From a phage, in sequence record PZ452611.1: a stretch of 64,000 bases of DNA. One strand, given 5' to 3'. Numbering within the stretch: the stretch's first letter is position 1; each line of letters opens with the position of its first letter. Shown here one piece after another: positions 14,993 to 63,194 of this stretch. The notes under the pieces are model-generated. The model worked only from the letters and a program-made list of their open reading frames with translations. It ran no database searches and was not told the DNA's origin. A program made the translations under genes and the position numbers.

Positions 14993-15412
14993 ATGAACAT
15001 TAAATCTAATAATCCGGCATATAGCTTTGATAACGCTTTTTGTCACGGTCCGGCGGCGAAAGGATTCGAAATCGATGGTAAACTAATTATTGTCAATGTT
15101 GACGGGGAAGAGGTTGCAGTATATCCGGTGGCAGACGTTAAAAGCCGTTTGCAATGCCGCATGGATGTTACCGCCTACCAGCTTGATCCGGTCCGCATAG
15201 TTGCCCTGGTCCTGGAGGAAGAGATCAAAGCCATGCATCATAGCAATAAGTTTATCGGTGACGCGCAAGATAATATGAAGGTATGCCGCTATAAAGTTAA
15301 TGAAGTGCTTAAAGAATACGGCTTCAAAGATCTGATGATCAAGCGTGATGAAAAATTCCGTTATCGTAACGACCTGGCAAATCGAATCTATGAAATATAC
15401 GAATCATTATAA
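14993..15412 (+). CDS. hypothetical protein
   Basis: 139 aa, TAAGAGG RBS; last gene of + early block. Confidence 0.55.
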   Translation: MNIKSNNPAYSFDNAFCHGPAAKGFEIDGKLIIVNVDGEEVAVYPVADVKSRLQCRMDVTAYQLDPVRIVALVLEEEIKAMHHSNKFIGDAQDNMKVCRYKVNEVLKEYGFKDLMIKRDEKFRYRNDLANRIYEIYESL

Positions 15413-15429
15413 TTTCTTAACTAAACTAT

Positions 15430-15459
15430 CAGGGGCTTTAAAAGGCCCCTTTCTTTTGT
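15430..15459 (+). terminator. rho-independent terminator
   Basis: AGGGGC-ttttaaaa-GGCCCCT followed by TTCTTTTG. Confidence 0.7.
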
Positions 15460-16059
15460 CTGTATTTCTCCTACCACAAACGGCCCAGCCTGGCAAGTGG
15501 AATAATTGACTAGCCAGCAATTACCAACACTGTACAAATATACATATAAAATAACTATTGCATAATCTTTCATCTTGTGGTAGCAGGGCCATTTTTACAC
15601 GTTTTCCTTCCAAAATTGCACGTAATGCAGCTATTGCATAAAATTTAACCTGATGCACATCTTCAATAGCTTGTCAACAACTAAAAATCTTTATAAGTCA
15701 TACACTTACATAACCACAAAAGCGTGTTCTACGTGAAAAATCGAGTATAACTATAGCCGCCAGATCTCAGAATTTACGTACGCTCACCATTCTATAGTCT
15801 GCTAAGTATTTATTCCAACCATAGAATAACAGAATAGTCAATACCTGCATAAAATAATTATTCGTGTAAACTGCATAACATAAATCAGCCGGGGTGTCAA
15901 CATTTTTCGTAAACGGCTCGAAATTATCACTGTGAGCTATCATAAACAGAGAAATCTTTAGTCGTCTAATGTTTACTGTACGTTACTATACTAACTGGAA
16001 TCATTAGATGACTAATAAAAAGATAAGAAATCATTAACAATGCAATTGTTTTATTCATA

Positions 16060-16395
16060 ACAATAAGGCAACTATGCAAACGAATGGCATGGCGCGACGG
16101 AGTCGCGACATAATATAAAAGCAGTAACCATCACCCCCGTGATAGTTTGTCTGCAAACTATTAATCAGATCATAGTTGCCTTGTATTTAGTTAATCATGA
16201 CATAAACTCAGGCATAGCCTTCGTCTCGAGGATGTTAACAAGCAAGGCAACTATAGATCTTCTAATAGTTGCCCTGCTTTTATATTATGTCATAGAAACA
16301 CCCGAAGGGGTGACCAAAGGTCACCTGGCATAGCCAGTGAAATATTGTAAACAAGTTAATTATTATCATGCAAACGAATGGCATGGCTTATCATC
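16060..16395. repeat. repeat cluster: TGCAAACGAATGGCATGGC x2 and GGCAACTAT/ATAGTTGCC x4 in alternating orientation
   Basis: read directly; no coding support. Confidence 0.55.
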
Positions 16396-16560
16396 TCTGT
16401 GTAAATAGTTTGTTTGTAAACAGTTTATACGTGAACAGTTAGCTGTGTAAACTATCAGGCATGTAAGCTATTGAGCATGTAAACAGTAAAGGTCGTGAAC
16501 AGTAAGCGAGCGAATAGTAATGGCGTGAACAATGACAGCGTAAACAGTCAGGCATGTCAA
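16395..16560. repeat. iteron-like array, about 9 copies of GTRAAYAGT at 12-17 bp spacing
   Basis: GTAAATAGT, GTAAACAGT, GTGAACAGT, GTAAACTAT, GTAAACAGT, GTGAACAGT, GCGAATAGT, GTGAACAAT, GTAAACAGT. Confidence 0.6.
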
Positions 16561-18016
16561 TTATGTTCAGTGTGTCACCATTATGTCATATTGTGTCAGA
16601 CAAGTTTTTCTCCTCTTTGTCAAGTGCTGCATGAAAAATTTACAATCTGGTATGGTAGCATTTTTGCGGCCCTGTTTACATTCAGTACTGTATGTATAAG
16701 CCTTGTTGTGTGGGCGCTTAGACGTCTAGACGGTTGGAAGTCTGCAGGTCAATATCTAATCTATTGGTTGCTAACTATATCCCACACAAATAGTAAGAAA
16801 TGCAATTGTTATATGCGTAAACTGTAACTCATGTTATCAATCCCTGTATGGATCGCCAGTGGTGCGCATAATAGGTATTATGTTAAATTGCCAGTAATGA
16901 TAACTATTCTCACAGTGATAGGTATTCTCATTCAACCCCACAAGATAGGTTGCAAATGTTGTGCCACTGTGTGAACGGCCTCGCCTATTAATTTGCCTCA
17001 CTGCCTCGATATTTGAGAATTATTATAAGAATGAGAAGTATTCCCATTTCGTCCGCCTGGCAGCACTCCTGTAGGTCAGGTCAAAATCGGGAGAGAACTG
17101 GACCTGTTCAGATATTTCTGGCTGGCTCTTCAGGTCTGTGTGGGAAAAGCCGACCCCTCCGGCGGCGGGGAGGGGGTCAATTAAAAAATTTACGGGGCAT
17201 ATGAAGCGCTCTTCAGGTAAGGCATGTATTATGGGATGAAACCCTCTTCAGGAAATGATATTTGTGGGTGTGATATTTGCTGGAAAGCTAGATATGACTG
17301 GACTCCTGGCGGGGCAGGGGTAGTACAGACAGGGGAAATATGGGGGATGTAGTTGGGTAAATTGATCAGGCAGGTAGAGTATGGAATATGTTACGAGTAT
17401 GTTAAATATGGAGGGTGAATATCTGCAGGATTTGTGTGTAAAATCAAAGACTTAAGTGGTGTTGTGGTATTTTCTATAAATAATTCAAGTTTAATAGGTG
17501 ATATTTGTCCCTATCCACTTTGTGTGGTAAACAGATTCAGATGAGATTGGTTTACGAGTGTATACATAATATACAAATTAAAGATACAAGAAACCCCCCT
17601 CCCCCTTCGGCTACCATTCACCTTTTCCTCTGACTGGTACTTAAACACTTATTCAGACTCTTCAGGTTATCACCCATATATCATATGGCAGTGACTGGTG
17701 TCCTCCGGCCCCTCTTTCGTCACCCGTCCGCTTCGCCATGCTAATGCCATAGCCAATGGTTCGGTTGTTCACCCTGTTCACTCAGGTGTATCTCCATACC
17801 CCTTCAAACCGAAGAGAACAGAAAACCCGAATTACTCGGTAAAAGAAAAGAGAAGAACTTAATTTTATCAGGATAAGCAAGAATGTCAAGGCATGACTGC
17901 TCACTAAACAAGCAAACAGTCATGTGTGGGAGGTAAGTGATTGTGGTGGTAGGAAATTTAGTTGAAAGATGTGTTATAGGTGCTCCCAGCACTTTAGCCG
18001 GGTAGCTAATTGTGTG

Positions 18017-55767: not shown

Positions 55768-56322
55768 ATGAAATACTTTGTAACAAGCGACACACACTTT
55801 CTCCACCAGCGGGTCATGGAGTTTGATTCATGTCAAAAACACAGATCTCAGTATGATCACAATCTTGACAGTATGAATGCGGGAATCATCGCCGAGTGGA
55901 ACTCTGTTGTGTCACCTGCAGACACTGTGTTCCACTTGGGAGATATTGCGTGCACTAATGATAAGAATATCAACAAATTACTTCCAGATATTCTAAATAT
56001 GTTGAACGGACATATTATTCTTGTTCGTGGCAACCATGACACAAGGACGACTGTCAGAATTATGAAAGAGTTCTATCACGAGGTTGTAGATTATTACGAG
56101 CTTCGCCACAACAAGAATTTGATCTGTATGAGCCATTACCAATTTGCAAAGTGGAACAGAAAGCCTCACGGATCAGTCCAACTGTTCGGTCATGCTCACG
56201 GAACCACACAACAGTTGTTTGGCAGGCAGCTTGATGTCGGTTGGGATGTGTGGGGGAGACTCTTACCATTAGAAGAGGCATACCGTACTGCAATGAGTTT
56301 TGATATTGACAGCAGGGAGTAA
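55768..56322 (+). CDS. calcineurin-like metallophosphoesterase
   Basis: DTHF, GDIA, VRGNHD motifs; start moved to MKYFVTSD (track 55663). Confidence 0.7.
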   Translation: MKYFVTSDTHFLHQRVMEFDSCQKHRSQYDHNLDSMNAGIIAEWNSVVSPADTVFHLGDIACTNDKNINKLLPDILNMLNGHIILVRGNHDTRTTVRIMKEFYHEVVDYYELRHNKNLICMSHYQFAKWNRKPHGSVQLFGHAHGTTQQLFGRQLDVGWDVWGRLLPLEEAYRTAMSFDIDSRE

Positions 56323-56369
56323 TCCCTGCTATTTTAAAGAAAATTGCCACACAAGGAGAATCAGGAGAT

Positions 56370-56720
56370 ATGAAAGATGGGGATAAGCTGCTATATCTTA
56401 AAGTCCCCCTTGAAATACTATCTATGTCAAAAGTTTTGAATGACACAACTGGGGAGGTTGTTGTTCTTGACTTGTATGACAAGATCGTATACTGCTACCT
56501 GCACAACTGGTATAAGCTTGGAGGAAATTCACGCTTCACACCAAGCACAAGGAAAATTGCAGCAGATGTTGGGATAAAGAAAACAAAAGCAGCAGCGTGC
56601 GTTAAAACTTTAGAATGTGCAGGAGTGGTTGAAACATCCACACAAGGGAGAGGTAAAAGATGCACATTTTCCAAAGTTTTGCCACCAGAAAAAGTTATTC
56701 GAATGTCAACAACTGGTTAG
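56370..56720 (+). CDS. putative HTH DNA-binding protein
   Basis: helix-turn-helix-like STRKIAADVGIKKTKAAACVKTLECAGVV; directly upstream of 21-bp repeat array. Confidence 0.4.
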   Translation: MKDGDKLLYLKVPLEILSMSKVLNDTTGEVVVLDLYDKIVYCYLHNWYKLGGNSRFTPSTRKIAADVGIKKTKAAACVKTLECAGVVETSTQGRGKRCTFSKVLPPEKVIRMSTTG

Positions 56721-56794
56721 ACCAGTAAAAACTTAAATATCTGTACTATAAGGATTCGTATGTTTTATGTTCGCTCTGGAACAGAGGTTAGTAA

Positions 56795-56876
56795 CTGTCC
56801 GTGATACGGACACTACTGTCCGTCACGCGGACACATCTGCCCGTAATACGGACACTAACTGTCCGTGATACGGACA
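56795..56876. repeat. four tandem 21-bp repeats with palindromic core CTGTCCGTGATACGGACAC
   Basis: copies at 56795, 56816, 56837, 56858; GTCCGT/ACGGAC inverted repeat in each. Confidence 0.75.
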
Positions 56877-57363
56877 CATAAAGAATATAACTAAAATAAC
56901 TAAATAATAAAAAATAAAAGATCTAGTACTTATGGTACTAAAGTACATATACTTAACTTATGTAGAATATACTAGATCCTAAGTACCATGTTTTAAATTT
57001 ATTACTTACCATAGGTAGTGTCGGCCCTTCATTGGCACTCGCCTACGAGGGGCGAGATGCCGGGCCTCCGTAGTGCACACATGCAGGTCTGTTAACATGT
57101 GTGGGAGCGAAGCGATAGCGCAGGCCAAAGGCCGAGCACTAATGTGGACCACCGACGAAAGCTTGCCAGCGCCGTAAGGAGTCGGTTGAGAGCCTCCCGC
57201 GCGAGTTTGGATAAAGTTTATGTGTGGAAACGGACAATGAGGCCCCTAAATCGCTCCACAGCCATATAAACTATACCAAGTAAGGCAATCGCACCAGTTT
57301 GATAGAAAAGCTCGTTACAAAGCGATACAGTGAGTTTTTCTATAACTTGAAGAGGAGGCAGCT

Positions 57364-57942
57364 ATGAGTCCACGCAAAGATGACCGTGAAAAGATTGCAA
57401 AACGTTATCAGAATGAAGAACAGATGGAGAAAACTTTCAAGTGGAAGCCAGGTTTCCAGCGTAATCATTCTAACGCTCGTGATCGTAAGCATCCGGATAA
57501 GTGGTTAACACCGCCAAATGATGGCATGCAGGTTGGTGATGAGAAGGAGCTGTCACCTGGAAAAGATGGCAACTACATTCGCACTAAGGACGCTGGTCCA
57601 AAGGATGACAGCTATCTTGTAGATAAGGTTCTTGATGGTATCAATGTAGATGTTGACACTGCACGAAACCTTTTTCTTGGGTGGTATCGCACAGGTTTTT
57701 TCGACATCAAGGCTATTCGTCGTGTTTGTGATATTAAAAAGTCTGCATATGATGACGACTCGTTACATCGCACCCTGAGACAATATTCAGAAAGATATGG
57801 TCATCCGGTTATCACTCTTGACGATGTTAACGAAGTGATGTATCATGCAGAGGTTGTTGCAGGAAGATTTGGTGATGCATATCTTGATATCCTTTCTGCA
57901 AAGGATGAGGTAATGTTAAATAAGATTTACTATGAACGCTGA
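57364..57942 (+). CDS. hypothetical protein
   Basis: 192 aa, GAGGAGG RBS. Confidence 0.5.
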   Translation: MSPRKDDREKIAKRYQNEEQMEKTFKWKPGFQRNHSNARDRKHPDKWLTPPNDGMQVGDEKELSPGKDGNYIRTKDAGPKDDSYLVDKVLDGINVDVDTARNLFLGWYRTGFFDIKAIRRVCDIKKSAYDDDSLHRTLRQYSERYGHPVITLDDVNEVMYHAEVVAGRFGDAYLDILSAKDEVMLNKIYYER

Positions 57943-58460: not shown

Positions 58461-58747
58461 GGTTGTTTTCGTGTATCATGATGAATATCCAATTTAAAGA
58501 TGAATTTGATGGCTTTATCTCCGGATGCTTTGAAACAGGGTTCGGAGAAGGCTGAGTTCCCCTTAGAGGGCTTGATAGTGCACCACACTTAAAATGGTAG
58601 GGGCAGCCAGCACATGACGATGTGACCCCAGCCAACCTGTAATAAGGTCGAGCCAAAGTGCGGTAATGGGCTCTGGTAACCCACTTGTTGGGTCTTGCTG
58701 GTCCAGGACGCTGGACAAGTCGCAGGGAATACCACCCTGCGGCGAAC

Positions 58748-58776
58748 TTGACAATCAGTATTTGCTATGATAAAAT
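58748..58776 (+). promoter_or_regulatory. sigma70-like promoter TTGACA-N17-TAAAAT
   Basis: upstream of gene 58805 with RBS GGAGGAAAC. Confidence 0.5.
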
Positions 58777-59239: not shown

Positions 59240-59314
59240 GCCCTGTTAGCTTAGTGGATAAAGCAGCGGCCTTCTAAGCCGTTGACACTGGTTCGAGTCC
59301 AGTACGGGGTGCCA
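59240..59314 (+). tRNA. tRNA-Arg (anticodon TCT)
   Basis: hand-folded cloverleaf: 7 bp acceptor with two G-U pairs, anticodon loop CTTCTAA, T-loop TTCGAGT, CCA encoded. Confidence 0.75.
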
Positions 59315-59318
59315 AATT

Positions 59319-59405
59319 GGGGAGTTATCCCGTAGAGGTAGCGGTGTAGACTGTAAATCTATTGTCATTGCGACTCGGGTGGTTCGACTCCACCACTCCC
59401 CACCA
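59319..59405 (+). tRNA. tRNA-Tyr (anticodon GTA)
   Basis: perfect 7 bp acceptor GGGGAGT/ACTCCCC, loop CTGTAAA, long variable arm, T-loop TTCGACT, CCA. Confidence 0.8.
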
Positions 59406-59519
59406 AATTTATATTTTTAGATGCATAAATAATACAGATAATGGCATTGATATTTATCGTCGTTTATACTAGTCACTAACTGCTCGAAAATCAGTGTCAT
59501 TATCAGTATAATTTATAAA

Positions 59520-59610
59520 GGAGGGTAGGGAGCAATGGTGCTCAAGCGGTCTTGAAAACCGTCCCGTTGAGGATGACTCGATGATGGTTCGATTCCATTA
59601 CTCTCCGCCA
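59520..59610 (+). tRNA. tRNA-Ser (anticodon TGA)
   Basis: acceptor GGAGGGT/ACTCTCC, loop CTTGAAA, long variable arm, T-loop TTCGATT, CCA. Confidence 0.75.
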
Positions 59611-59708
59611 CATTGTTGACCTTGTAATTAAGCGAAAGCCGGAAGCAGAACCGGATTATCAAATGTTACAGTCGTCATCGCCGACTAGCAACATGGTCAA
59701 CATACTGA

Positions 59709-59805
59709 GCTAGGTAAGCCCTTTGGCAAGGGCGAGGATTTTTAATCCTGAAAATAGACGAGGTAGTCGTTGAATACATAGGTGGTTCGATTCCATCACC
59801 TAGCA
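59709..59805 (+). tRNA. aberrant tRNA-like element (possible tRNA-Lys TTT-like with about 30 nt extra arm)
   Basis: perfect acceptor GCTAGGT/ACCTAGC, canonical D-arm and T-arm (GGTGGTTCGATTCCATC), anticodon-like loop TTTTTAA, but 30 nt insertion between anticodon and T arms. Confidence 0.35.
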
Positions 59806-59812
59806 CCTTTTT

Positions 59813-59888
59813 GCTGATGTAGCACAATCGGTAGTGCAATTGATTTGTAATCAATAGGTTGTAGGTTCAAGTCCTGCCATCAGCACCA
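59813..59888 (+). tRNA. tRNA-Thr (anticodon TGT)
   Basis: acceptor GCTGATG/CATCAGC, loop TTTGTAA, T-loop TTCAAGT, CCA. Confidence 0.8.
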
Positions 59889-59889
59889 A

Positions 59890-59964
59890 GGCCCTGTAGC
59901 TGGAAGGTTCAAGCAAGCGACTCATAATCGCCAGACGGTGGTTCAATTCCACCCAGGGCCACCA
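59890..59964 (+). tRNA. tRNA-Met (anticodon CAT; Ile-lysidine type not excluded)
   Basis: acceptor GGCCCTG/CAGGGCC, loop CTCATAA, T-loop TTCAATT, CCA. Confidence 0.75.
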
Positions 59965-59975
59965 AATAGTAAATA

Positions 59976-60052
59976 CTCCGCGTAGCTCAGCTTGGTAGAG
60001 CGCCTGATTTGGGATCAGGAGGTCGAGTGTTCGAATCACTCCGTGGAGACCA
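59976..60052 (+). tRNA. tRNA-Pro (anticodon TGG)
   Basis: C1-G72 acceptor, D-arm GCTCAGCTTGGTAGAGC, loop TTTGGGA, T-loop TTCGAAT, CCA. Confidence 0.8.
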
Positions 60053-61156: not shown

Positions 61157-61584
61157 TGTCTAAGATTTACGGACCGTGTTCTGAAAAGCAGAAGATGATC
61201 CTCGAAAACGATGCAGATATCTTGGTAATCGGCGGTGCAGCAGGGTCTGGCAAGTCGTTCCTCTTGCAGTTGATGCCACTTAAAATTATTGATGACCCCC
61301 ACAGCTCTGTGGTTATGTTCCGAAGAACAACCCCACAGTTGGAAGGTGAGGGTGGGCTATGGCCTAAAGCAGTAGCTATTTATAGTGATCTGCCTGAAAA
61401 CATTAAGCCAAAGTTTAGAGAGAAGGATCATAAGTTCATTTTTCCACGGTTTGATCCGAACACTGGCAAGTGGGATAGAAGCAAAAAGGGAGCTGTTGTA
61501 AAATACTGCCACATGGAGTATGTACAAGATAAGCTTAACCATCAGGGGCTTGAGTACACCATGGTTTGCTTCGATGAGGGTTAA
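61156..61584 (+). CDS. terminase large subunit, exon 1 (ATPase N-terminus)
   Basis: Walker A GGAAGSGKS, Walker B-like CFDE; frame closes at TAA inside putative intron. Confidence 0.6.
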   Translation: MSKIYGPCSEKQKMILENDADILVIGGAAGSGKSFLLQLMPLKIIDDPHSSVVMFRRTTPQLEGEGGLWPKAVAIYSDLPENIKPKFREKDHKFIFPRFDPNTGKWDRSKKGAVVKYCHMEYVQDKLNHQGLEYTMVCFDEG

Positions 61585-61587
61585 TTT

Positions 61588-61920
61588 GTAGCTCTCGTAA
61601 AACCTCCCTAATTGCGGGGAAATCTTTATTATTGACACCACCAACCTGTTATGGTAACATAATAGAGGCTTCGAAGAGAGATCGAAGGTATGGTAACAGT
61701 GTGTTAATTTAGATAATCCGCAGCGAAGCATCCGAGAGGATGAACGTTCAACGACTAGTCGAAAGACGTAGAATCAAGCGATTCGAAACGGGAGGGTAAG
61801 CGATTGTTGTCGCTTATAAGATATAGTCTGGTCTGCATGGAGACATGCAGCTGCCTGAGAATGGCGGGGCAAGACTAGCGACCTTGCCTGAACATAAACG
61901 ACACAATTCGAATGGGAGCA
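61588..61920 (+). mobile_element. group-I-like intron 1 (no ORF), boundaries approximate
   Basis: ORF-free insert between terminase frames; shares AATTGCGGGGAAATC and ATAGTCTGGTCTGCATGGAGACATGCAGC blocks with second insert. Confidence 0.5.
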
Positions 61921-62224: not shown

Positions 62225-63194
62225 TAGTGGCTTCGTGCAGAAATGCACGTCGAATAACTTCGTTAATTGCTGGGAAATCCGATTGCTAAACGGACAATCA
62301 GCAGCTATAATTACCCTTCCGAACCTGTAGTAGGGAGATGTTTGAAATGAAAAATTTAGGCTTTTTAGGCTACAATCATTATTGTGCTACATACGATGGC
62401 AGAATTTACAGTCTGTATTCTAATAAATTCCTCCATCCTAATGTGCAGAAAAAGACTGGCTATGCTATGGTAACTTTGTGCGAGGACGGTAAAAAGTTCC
62501 AAGTGCTCGTTCACAGAGTGATTGCTATGACTTTTGTTGATAATGACAATCCCAGCGTGAAAACTCAAGTAAACCACCTAGATGGTAATAAGTTGAATAA
62601 CGCCGCATGGAACCTTGAGTGGACAACGCCTGAGGAAAACACACATCACGCTCATGAAATGGGACTTAAAAAGGACTATGTCAATAAATACAGGTCCCTG
62701 GATGATGCCACCGCTCTTGAAATATGTAGGCTGTTAGAGCAAGGCGCAAGGGTAAAAGACATTTGTGAAATGTTTGGTGTCAATCAACCACTTGTAAGTG
62801 GTATAAAGAATGGCTCAGTATACCCAGATATTTCTAAAGAGTTTAACTTTAGAAAAGTGCCAACCTCTAATCGGATAAGTGAGCACAAGATAATAGGTAT
62901 CTGCGAGGATCTTAGTGATAAGGTCTTGTGTGTAAATAAAATAGCTAAGAAGTGGGGAGTAAGTTTTAGTGTTGTTAAAGGAATAAAAGACCGTAAGACT
63001 TACACCTATATTTCAAACAATTACGATTGGTAATGTAGTTCAACGACTATCCTGAGAGGGAGTAGGGCGCAAGCTTATGGCGCTCGAAAAGCGAAGCACC
63101 CTGAAATGGGTGGTGATATAGTCTACTCTGCATGGTAACATGCAGCAGCACGTAAAGGTGCGGAAGGTGGTGTTGCGACCACCTTTGAATATAA
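62225..63194 (+). mobile_element. group-I-like intron 2 carrying HNH homing endonuclease, boundaries approximate
   Basis: conserved blocks shared with intron 1 (TTAATTGCTGGGAAATCC; ATAGTCTACTCTGCATGGTAACATGCAGC at 63118-63146); internal free-standing ORF. Confidence 0.55.
62338..63033 (+). CDS. HNH homing endonuclease (HNH_3 with C-terminal NUMOD/HTH-like repeats)
   Basis: VHRVIAMTF...NHLDGNKLNNAAWNLEWTTPEEN HNH motif. Confidence 0.85.
   Translation: MFEMKNLGFLGYNHYCATYDGRIYSLYSNKFLHPNVQKKTGYAMVTLCEDGKKFQVLVHRVIAMTFVDNDNPSVKTQVNHLDGNKLNNAAWNLEWTTPEENTHHAHEMGLKKDYVNKYRSLDDATALEICRLLEQGARVKDICEMFGVNQPLVSGIKNGSVYPDISKEFNFRKVPTSNRISEHKIIGICEDLSDKVLCVNKIAKKWGVSFSVVKGIKDRKTYTYISNNYDW

Follow-up and report, generated by a model that had tools for sequence, protein, structure and literature searches.

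The locus considered here lies in a stretch of phage DNA of 64,000 nucleotides (in the following, the window), in which a gene for a small putative DNA-binding protein is followed by tandem palindromic repeats and by strongly AT-rich DNA. The question raised by this arrangement is whether it serves the initiation of DNA replication or the control of transcription. A preliminary description made from the letters of the sequence had left both options standing, namely an origin of the lambda O/ori type and a repressor-operator array.

The DNA of the window is that of Escherichia phage V5 (rV5). Positions 56300-57400 are 100% identical to NC_011041 / DQ832317 in reverse orientation, and a window position x corresponds to coordinate 65728 - (x - 56300) of the V5 record. 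A further 117 records match this region at 88-99%, nearly all of them classified as Vequintavirus. The full V5 genome with a size of 137,947 bp and a GC content of 43.6% was used as the basis of the genome-wide scans. The gene at 56370-56720 is rv5_gp075 (ORF 79) of the V5 record; it was named 'putative transcriptional regulator' by the depositors and is now listed by RefSeq as 'replication initiation protein'. In a few GenBank records the repeats have been entered as an unexplained 'repeat_region'. A literature search returned no paper on the origin or the repeats described here, and searches on iterons, replication initiation, CRISPRi essentiality and transcriptomes of Vequintavirus as well as on DUF6945 returned nothing relevant. 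In the rV5 genome paper the origin had been sought by skew analysis, by which only transcription-linked shifts were found.

The repeat array was delimited with two search procedures. Tandem Repeats Finder reported a period of 21 bp with 4.0 copies at 56794-56877, in agreement with the four tandem 21-bp palindromic units described before; the starts given there are correct for units 1 to 3, while unit 4 begins at 56859 and had been placed one base early at 56858. The dyad GTCCGT...ACGGAC that had been ascribed to every unit is present as GTCCGT-N3-ACGGAC with the exception of unit 3, which has GCCCGT in its place. The repeat search yielded four 22-nt copies starting at 56792, 56813, 56834 and 56856, with spacings of 21, 21 and 22 and identities of 77-100%. 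Taken as dyads, the iteron-like array (56796-56876, without strand) consists of four 17-bp palindromes of the form TGTCCGT-NNN-ACGGACA at 56796-56812, 56817-56833, 56838-56854 and 56860-56876, the third with one mismatch, with centres 21-22 bp apart. The eight half-sites begin at 56796, 56807, 56817, 56828, 56838, 56849, 56860 and 56871, that is, 10-11 bp apart or about every 10.5 bp, which corresponds to approximately one half-site per helical turn and to one face of the helix. As imperfect inverted repeats the units are candidate sites for a dimeric protein.

With at most one mismatch allowed, and both strands counted, the motif GTCCGTNNNRCGGAC was matched 10 times in the window, where 0.12 matches are expected; 10 matches were reached in 0 of 100 shuffles, and 8 of the 10 belong to the array itself. 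In the genome-wide scan (137,947 bp) the array was the sole cluster of the dyad, accompanied by one extra site with one mismatch inside a gene. A scan of IMG/VR with the exact repeat-unit pattern gave no match. The array starts 76 bp past the stop codon of gp075, which places the origin candidate outside the gp075 gene.

The array is followed by an A-rich, purine-biased tract on the plus strand (56878-56923; A 67%, purines 72%, GC 11%), which is proposed as a DNA-unwinding element. The 13-mer consensus of E. coli oriC is GATCTnTTnTTTT, and the 3' end of the tract, AAAATAAAAGATC (56911-56923), is the genome's single match to the complement of this consensus and ends in GATC. This match should not be over-read, given that AAAATAAAAGATC sits in A-rich DNA and that 12 of 100 window shuffles yielded at least one match. 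The unwinding element of oriC comprises three 13-mers with adenine-methylation sites (PMC5043065). The tract runs into an AT-rich palindrome block (56920-57019, without strand) composed of outer arms and inner dyads. The outer arms are GATCTAGTA at 56920-56928 and, paired with it, TACTAGATC at 56970-56978, each containing a GATC Dam site, and the inner dyads include AAGTA-N-TACTT and, at 56925-56939, the palindrome AGTAC-TTATG-GTACT, which had already been reported from the AT-rich stretch. The A-rich tract and the palindrome block together (56874-57013) hold the lowest GC contents of the genome at lengths of 60, 100 and 140 bp (0.15, 0.18 and 0.21, respectively). No DnaA box was found in the region.

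On its far side the AT-rich core is flanked by a conserved GC-rich element (57020-57265, without strand) with 55-62% GC as compared to 43.6% for the genome. This element is possibly part of the origin; it may act as a limiter of DNA unwinding, or as a structured RNA or DNA. The z-scores of RNA folding were weak (-1.4 on the plus strand and -2.7 on the minus strand), and the 2 covarying pairs are too sparse to judge an RNA role. The Rfam search over the region returned no family above its gathering score, and rli43 (24 bits versus a gathering score of 100) was judged a chance match in AT-rich DNA. ORF 78 is open in all relatives and yet shows no codon-position bias (11/12/10 variable sites), and it was rejected as a coding sequence. 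The neighbouring gp073 is confined to the genus and was uninformative.

For the analysis of conservation, the interval from gp075 to gp073 was aligned from 12 other Vequintavirus genomes or metagenome contigs, and the diversity was calculated for each segment. All 12 distinct relatives spanning the region keep three or four units; a loss of the repeats with retention of the gene, which the preliminary description had named as evidence against its proposal, does not occur among them. Copy number varies by whole 21-nt units only, phages A147 and V18 having three units each via exact 21-nt deletions, and the substitutions seen within the units affect chiefly the central triplet or the innermost position of the stem. 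The spacer of 25 nt between a conserved gene-end leader and the array (56770-56794, without strand) is unconstrained and provides a local guide to the neutral substitution rate; its nucleotide diversity is 0.30. The corresponding values are mostly 0.06-0.08 for the neighbouring coding sequences, 0.05 for the AT palindrome block, 0.03 for the A-rich tract and 0.02, the lowest of the region, for the repeat array. The repeats and the AT-rich core are under purifying selection, as shown computationally.

The protein of 116 aa with an HTH-like segment that had been noticed upstream of the repeats is encoded by the ORF at 56370-56720 on the plus strand, and the Pfam search and the AlphaFold2 model place a winged-helix HTH at about residues 35-103. 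Based on Pfam, PHROG, AlphaFold2 and hhalign, gp075 (ORF 79) is proposed to be an origin-binding initiator made up of a single winged-helix domain. Its two Pfam scores lie just below the cut-offs (DUF6945, 27.2 bits with a cut-off of 28; HTH_36, 24.5 with a cut-off of 25). PHROG 12838 was matched over the full length of the protein (residues 1-116) with an E-value of 1.1e-79, and weaker matches comprised the N-terminal parts of three longer families, PHROGs 8102, 428 and 270. All four PHROGs are labelled 'replication initiation protein', a label which is annotation only. The relatives of gp075 match lambda-O-like and DnaD-like loader PHROGs, the O-like matches being weak and limited to distant relatives. 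For gp075 itself, the Pfam search up to an E-value of 1 gave no match to Phage_rep_O (PF04492), RepA_N and DnaD_N were likewise without a Pfam match, and no terminase family was among the Pfam, PHROG and NCBIfam matches. In the remote homologues DnaD_N was matched weakly.

In the AlphaFold2 model of gp075 (pLDDT 69), a beta-hairpin is combined with three helices, a wing of two strands and, at the C-terminus, a short helix. Foldseek ranked 4RO3 first, followed by the iteron-binding N-terminal domains of the staphylococcal RepA initiators (4PQL, 5KBJ and 4PT7; probability 1.0 and TM of about 0.5 for the RepA structures). Since the fold is near to both 4RO3 and the RepA domains, it cannot on its own separate an initiator from a regulator. 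Close relatives of gp075 were found in Vequintavirus only, and an exhaustive profile search of 1.8 billion representatives returned one strong cluster and about a dozen remote matches (E-values of 1e-6 to 1e-3). When nine of the remote matches were scanned against Pfam, most proved to be small DUF6945/HTH_36 proteins. Some of the remote homologues carry acidic C-terminal tails ending in PF, which are absent from gp075, and in gp075, a bare DNA-binding domain of 116 aa, no part for the recruitment of a helicase or a loader is visible. Judged by sequence comparison, the relatives of gp075 are the DNA-binding domains of proteins annotated as initiators.

Just upstream of gp075, the promoter scan and RefSeq place a sigma-70-type promoter, P76 of the V5 record (56306-56335, plus strand; TTGACA-18-TATTTT with an extended -10 TG), which suggests early expression of gp075 by the host RNA polymerase. 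Between 56720 and 57364, no sigma-70-type promoter was predicted on either strand by the scan, which covers the sigma-70 type, and none is annotated in the V5 record. On the scale of the genome, the cumulative GC skew reaches its global minimum 1.45 kb to the left, and transcription diverges at that point. The skew minimum is not independent evidence, because it coincides with the change in gene orientation, and the same shift was seen in the rV5 genome paper and ascribed there to transcription; as support for an origin it is weak. The large terminase gene starts 4.4 kb downstream, with five ORFs, a tRNA cluster and two spanin genes in between. The T7-type polymerase and the gp4-like primase-helicase encoded by V5, the latter being rv5_gp225, are located far off, at 127-132 kb of the record. 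The genome contains a second AT-rich, repeat-rich non-coding region of 2.6 kb, at about 15410-18015 of the window, which could be another origin, either an additional one or the true one.

In order to find the same module outside the genus, the remote homologues were used as queries, by which small winged-helix genes of the PHROG-8102 type were located in six other phage lineages. The hhalign comparison of gp075 with the PHROG-8102-type proteins of these six lineages gave a probability of 96.1% and an E-value of 2.9e-9. Three remote homologues used as queries in viral contigs gave no confirmed loci. A search by synteny in other genera, guided by the neighbouring phosphoesterase gene, revealed a different gene order and no winged-helix gene at that place, and when the intergenic region of V5 was aligned by MAFFT with its counterparts in other genera, nothing beyond short motifs could be matched. 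The layout common to the seven lineages, V5 included, is a small winged-helix gene, 2-7 repeats and an A-rich tract, the tract following the repeats on the coding strand of the gene with 62-78% purines. The repeats are three copies of GGACAAAATGTCC in the Pseudomonas phage phiPMW, whose paper makes no mention of them; GACAnnnTGTC in the Rheinheimera phage Barba (Barbavirus), with five tandem and two further copies, seven in all, 23-24 bp apart; TGACAAATTTGTCA and TGACACAAATGTC in Hena1 (Henunavirus); three copies of CCGGACA in KpS8 (Mydovirus); two copies of GACAAAAACG and an inverted copy in SPLA5a (Seunavirus); and two copies of TGCAAAATTTGCA in PVP-SE1 (Seunavirus). The repeat sequences thus differ between lineages; a GACA core is present in all except PVP-SE1 and hints at a conserved recognition helix.

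The five Vequintavirinae lineages, including V5, have further features in common. Their tracts contain GATC sites and are partly conserved in sequence, a GC-rich block comes after the tract, and the gene is followed by the sites, which are separated from the gene's own promoter by about 460 bp. PhiPMW and Barbavirus have their repeats on the upstream side of the gene, within a divergent promoter region. The A-rich tract is opened, after the repeats, by TAAAGAATA in V5, KpS8 (Mydovirus) and Hena1 (Henunavirus); the tract of SPLA5a has the similar ATAATAAAGAA, and AAAACAAAAGATC is common to both Seunaviruses, SPLA5a and PVP-SE1. A GC-rich block with a GTGTGTGGAAG-like motif is also present 3' of the AT core in Seunavirus and Mydovirus.

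The two Seunaviruses differ from each other at exactly this locus. Over hundreds of bases to the left and right of the gene and the repeats, SPLA5a and PVP-SE1 share 90-100% identity, but across the winged-helix gene and the repeats they are unalignable, with an identity of about 50% or below, and the two winged-helix proteins are 38% identical by tblastn and 36% in the alignment. On the right, the exchanged segment stops precisely at the junction of repeats and A-rich core. Protein and repeats are thus passed on together as a single unit of specificity, which functions with a core common to both phages, and the exchange argues that each protein binds its own adjacent repeats, for which it is the strongest evidence available. 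The pairing of a DNA-binding protein with its own neighbouring sites, as assumed at the outset for V5, thus gains strong support from the comparison of six lineages and from the swap in Seunavirus, as far as sequences can tell.

Of the two options of the preliminary description, the lambda-ori-like one is the better supported, and the locus is considered, with moderate confidence, to be the vegetative replication origin of the rV5-type phages, in which iterons and an unwinding element work like ori-lambda. According to this reading, gp075 would be made early from a host-type promoter, and dimers of it would bind the four phased palindromes. With a half-site at every helical turn, the bound proteins would line one face of the DNA and might bend or wrap it, comparable to the lambda O-some. 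The resulting stress would be absorbed by the adjacent tract with about 11-20% GC and a purine bias on one strand; the tract would then open and a helicase would enter, either the T7 gp4-like primase-helicase of the phage or DnaB of the host. Forks would leave both ways, in keeping with the diverging gene orientation and the minimum of the GC skew. Against the origin reading it has to be held that gp075 is devoid of a recruiting part, which leaves an essential step of the lambda mechanism without a candidate, and that the region at about 15410-18015 is an alternative or additional candidate. Moreover, large virulent phages can initiate replication from transcripts or recombination intermediates, and an iteron origin may be unneeded.

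The alternative that survives best, although it is regarded as unlikely, is that gp075 is a transcription factor whose four phased sites form an operator array governing a promoter inside the AT-rich region or close to it. This promoter might serve the GC-rich element and gp073 as well as the tRNA, lysis and late genes further downstream, or the bound protein might be a roadblock to read-through and act as a timing switch. The generic regulator fold of gp075 would suit such a role, and autoregulation is in keeping with phiPMW and Barbavirus, where the repeats precede the gene within the divergent promoter region. The origin-like reading is preferred for several reasons. At the V5 array, no sigma-70-like promoter is predicted or annotated (56720-57364) and accordingly none overlaps it, and in five lineages of the Vequintavirinae the sites are found downstream of the regulator gene and about 460 bp away from its own promoter. 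The site cluster is unique in the 138 kb of the genome, with no further operators at other promoters. An operator would leave unexplained why an AT-rich, strand-asymmetric tract, which in V5 combines the genome's lowest GC with a purine bias on one strand, always comes after the repeats, and why this tract was retained when protein and sites were swapped. Finally, the sequence-profile relatives of gp075 are annotated as initiator or loader domains, i.e. the DNA-binding domains of annotated initiators, and not as repressors. Due to the fact that initiators often autoregulate, the operator and origin roles are not mutually exclusive.

A variant of the origin reading, judged quite improbable, is a composite origin of an undescribed kind, in which a one-domain initiator would be responsible for site recognition only and the conserved core would do the rest. 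The core would comprise the oriC-like 13-mer with its Dam sites followed by the conserved GC-rich element. It might mimic the unwinding element of the host oriC and capture the DnaB-DnaC or DnaA machinery, or the GC-rich element might be a structured RNA or an R-loop which primes or gates initiation. Such a division of labour would account for the free exchange of the specificity cassette between phages.

That gp075 is the DNA-recognition subunit of the terminase and the repeats a pac site, from which headful packaging starts, is considered very improbable. The rV5 genome is circularly permuted with no small terminase subunit annotated, and both in V5 and in Barbavirus the gene and the repeats lie 4-5 kb upstream of terL and open the rightward unit to which terL also belongs; between gp075 and terL, however, there are tRNA, spanin and other genes. 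Lambda Nu1, a winged-helix protein with repeated R sites in cosB as its targets, may be counted in favour of a packaging role, but no terminase small-subunit family was among the Pfam or PHROG matches of gp075, the predicted protein is without an oligomerisation domain of the small-terminase kind, and the promoter of the gene is of the early host type and not late. In two metagenome contigs the sequence stops within the array or shortly past it, and a GenBank record begins a few bases ahead of the AT-rich tract, which speaks for a packaging site, but contigs often end at short tandem repeats as an assembly artefact. It is hardly credible that the repeats have arisen by slippage without a function, or that they form RNA hairpins where the gp075 transcript has its 3' end, a view for which the copy number of 3 or 4 and a possible 6-7-bp RNA hairpin per unit could be cited. 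Conservation in the region is highest in the array, which lies beside a fast-evolving spacer, analogous repeats with other sequences and arrangements accompany distant homologues, and the hairpins are followed by no T-run and by no predicted terminator.

With the origin reading preferred, the outcome is a precise origin candidate of about 230 bp for the rV5-type phages together with a named protein that is likely to bind it. Elements of this kind are well known, and the initiator label of gp075, which is homology-based, already exists; the unusual traits are the minimal one-domain initiator and the freely exchanged specificity cassette. The plan recurs throughout the subfamily and in two unrelated groups of myoviruses, and the natural swap between SPLA5a and PVP-SE1 provides a ready pair for work on specificity. 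The rV5-type phages (Vequintavirinae) are widely isolated and are used against pathogenic E. coli, Salmonella, Klebsiella and Cronobacter, and a defined origin would aid phage engineering, the building of replicons and the reading of copy-number data from infected cells. The mechanistic question that is raised is how replication could be started by a winged helix of 100 aa without a recruiting domain.

Among known systems, the structure with the closest fold, PDB 4RO3, is the N-terminal domain of a Vibrio cholerae protein of the Pfam DUF6945 type and gives no functional information. The best named Foldseek matches after it are the initiators of the RepA_N type (RepA of pSK41 and pTZ2162; 4PQL, 4PT7 and 5KBJ) and the N-terminal domain of DnaD. 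The modelled order of elements in gp075, with an N-terminal beta-hairpin, a winged helix and a C-terminal helix, resembles that of the RepA_N/DnaD-type N-terminal domains, which bind iterons as dimers. With the iteron plasmids P1, F, RK2, R6K and pSC101 the V5 locus shares phased repeats of about 20-22 bp beside an AT-rich unwinding element, the latter being proposed in the case of V5; the unwinding elements of RK2 and oriC contain 13-mers (PMC5043065). The repeats of iteron plasmids are direct and asymmetric and are bound by monomers of two-domain Rep proteins, whereas gp075 has a single domain, the V5 sites are palindromic and there is no DnaA box nearby.

The nearest counterpart in layout is ori-lambda, which has four 19-bp iterons with imperfect inverted repeats and a flanking AT-rich tract, and in which two iterons along with this tract are enough for unwinding (PMC7466680); the purines of the tract are nearly all on one strand (PMC5043065). 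Correspondingly, the V5 locus has four tandem, imperfectly palindromic sites about 20 bp apart which abut an AT-rich, purine-biased tract, and gp075, like lambda O, has a winged-helix DNA-binding domain. The V5 locus nevertheless does not belong to the lambda O family. Its origin candidate is located downstream of the gp075 gene, whereas ori-lambda is inside its gene; in contrast to lambda O, gp075 has no Phage_rep_O match and no C-terminal domain for a P-like loader; and no P-like loader gene was identified in V5, which has a T7-type polymerase and a gp4-like primase-helicase of its own. Moreover, the hosts of the module are large virulent myoviruses and not, as in the lambdoid case, temperate siphoviruses. 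In lambdoid phages the iterons and the N-terminus of O are reported in classical work to co-vary beside a shared AT tract, and the Seunaviruses are like them in that the specificity, consisting of protein and sites, is swapped while the AT tract is kept.

The AT-rich core to the right of the gp075 repeat array adjoins a conserved GC-rich block (57020-57265; 55-62% GC). In the region of this block the V5 record annotates ORF 78 (57099-57269), and its reading frame is open in all relatives. The variable sites of ORF 78 are spread evenly over the three codon positions (11/12/10), and it is therefore probably non-coding, as judged from this substitution pattern. The block had no match in Rfam, and covariation, examined as a check for RNA structure, was sparse. 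In the genera Seunavirus and Mydovirus the AT core is likewise followed by a GC-rich block, which carries a GTGTGTGGAAG-like motif. A second local GC-rich patch of 53-58% GC (58550-58750) is non-coding, lies upstream of ORF 74 and overlaps a strong sigma-70-like promoter (58748-58776).

Several database sequences end or begin at or close to the repeat array. Two metagenome contigs stop within it or just past it (L010, at 1839; L015, at 3519), and the GenBank record MG065672.1 starts a few bases ahead of the AT-rich tract, with its match running from base 87. These ends probably represent assembly breaks at the repeats; they could also reflect a preferred DNA end. The PLSDB record CP057073.1, an E. 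coli 'plasmid' of 137.5 kb that comes from cattle faeces, contains a gene for a homologue of gp075 and matches a Vequintavirus genome in size; it is therefore probably the genome of a phage that was filed as a plasmid. Furthermore, 18 records named 'Campylobacter phage' (GenBank MG0656xx) share 96-99% identity with this region, and the one that was checked is flagged UNVERIFIED and classified as Vequintavirus.

A second non-coding, AT-rich region was observed at about 15410-18015 (V5 record 104013-106618), where transcription converges and 2.6 kb are free of annotated genes. The genome map in the rV5 paper (Figure 2) shows a 'non-coding' box in which no ORFs are marked. This region contains the 100-bp window with the second-lowest GC content of the genome (15965-16064, GC 0.23) and is rich in repeats, among them an exact 20-nt repeat (16074/16368), a perfect 18-bp inverted repeat (16107/16274) and a GTAAAC-type motif that is spaced at 16-bp intervals across 16431-16487 and has additional copies elsewhere in the region. 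It could serve as a second origin, as a terminus or as a regulatory RNA region.

Elsewhere in the window, the large terminase gene is interrupted by a group I intron (61572-61850; Rfam RF00028, 84.9 bits) and carries, downstream of it, an HNH endonuclease ORF (62338-63033). The V5 record already lists both elements and gives the terminase CDS as a join of three pieces. The tRNA cluster (59240-60052) includes a 99-nt tRNA-like gene with the four-base anticodon atcc (59709-59807), detected with ARAGORN, which is listed as 'tRNA-OTHER' in the Murica record and is without annotation in the V5 record.

Two different genera of Vequintavirinae carry two tandem copies of a 24-nt, CTAATTATTCCCAAAAAGGAATGT-like unit with a TTCC...GGAA dyad, located in SSE121 (L019, 2706-2751) and in Klebsiella phage K18PH07C1 (L020, 2504-2551). 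These copies lie within or close to a divergent intergenic region, which has no relation to the gp075 module of gene, repeat array and AT core.

Among the distant relatives of gp075, several possess an acidic, disordered C-terminal tail whose last two residues are PF or NF, as in ...EDPDAPF; these are the remote homologues P0009, P0016, P0017 and P0019 and gp58 of phage KLEP7 (L024, 2480-2941). The C-terminal tip of bacterial SSB recruits partner proteins, and the tails of the remote homologues resemble this tip, whereas gp075 itself differs from them in having no such tail.
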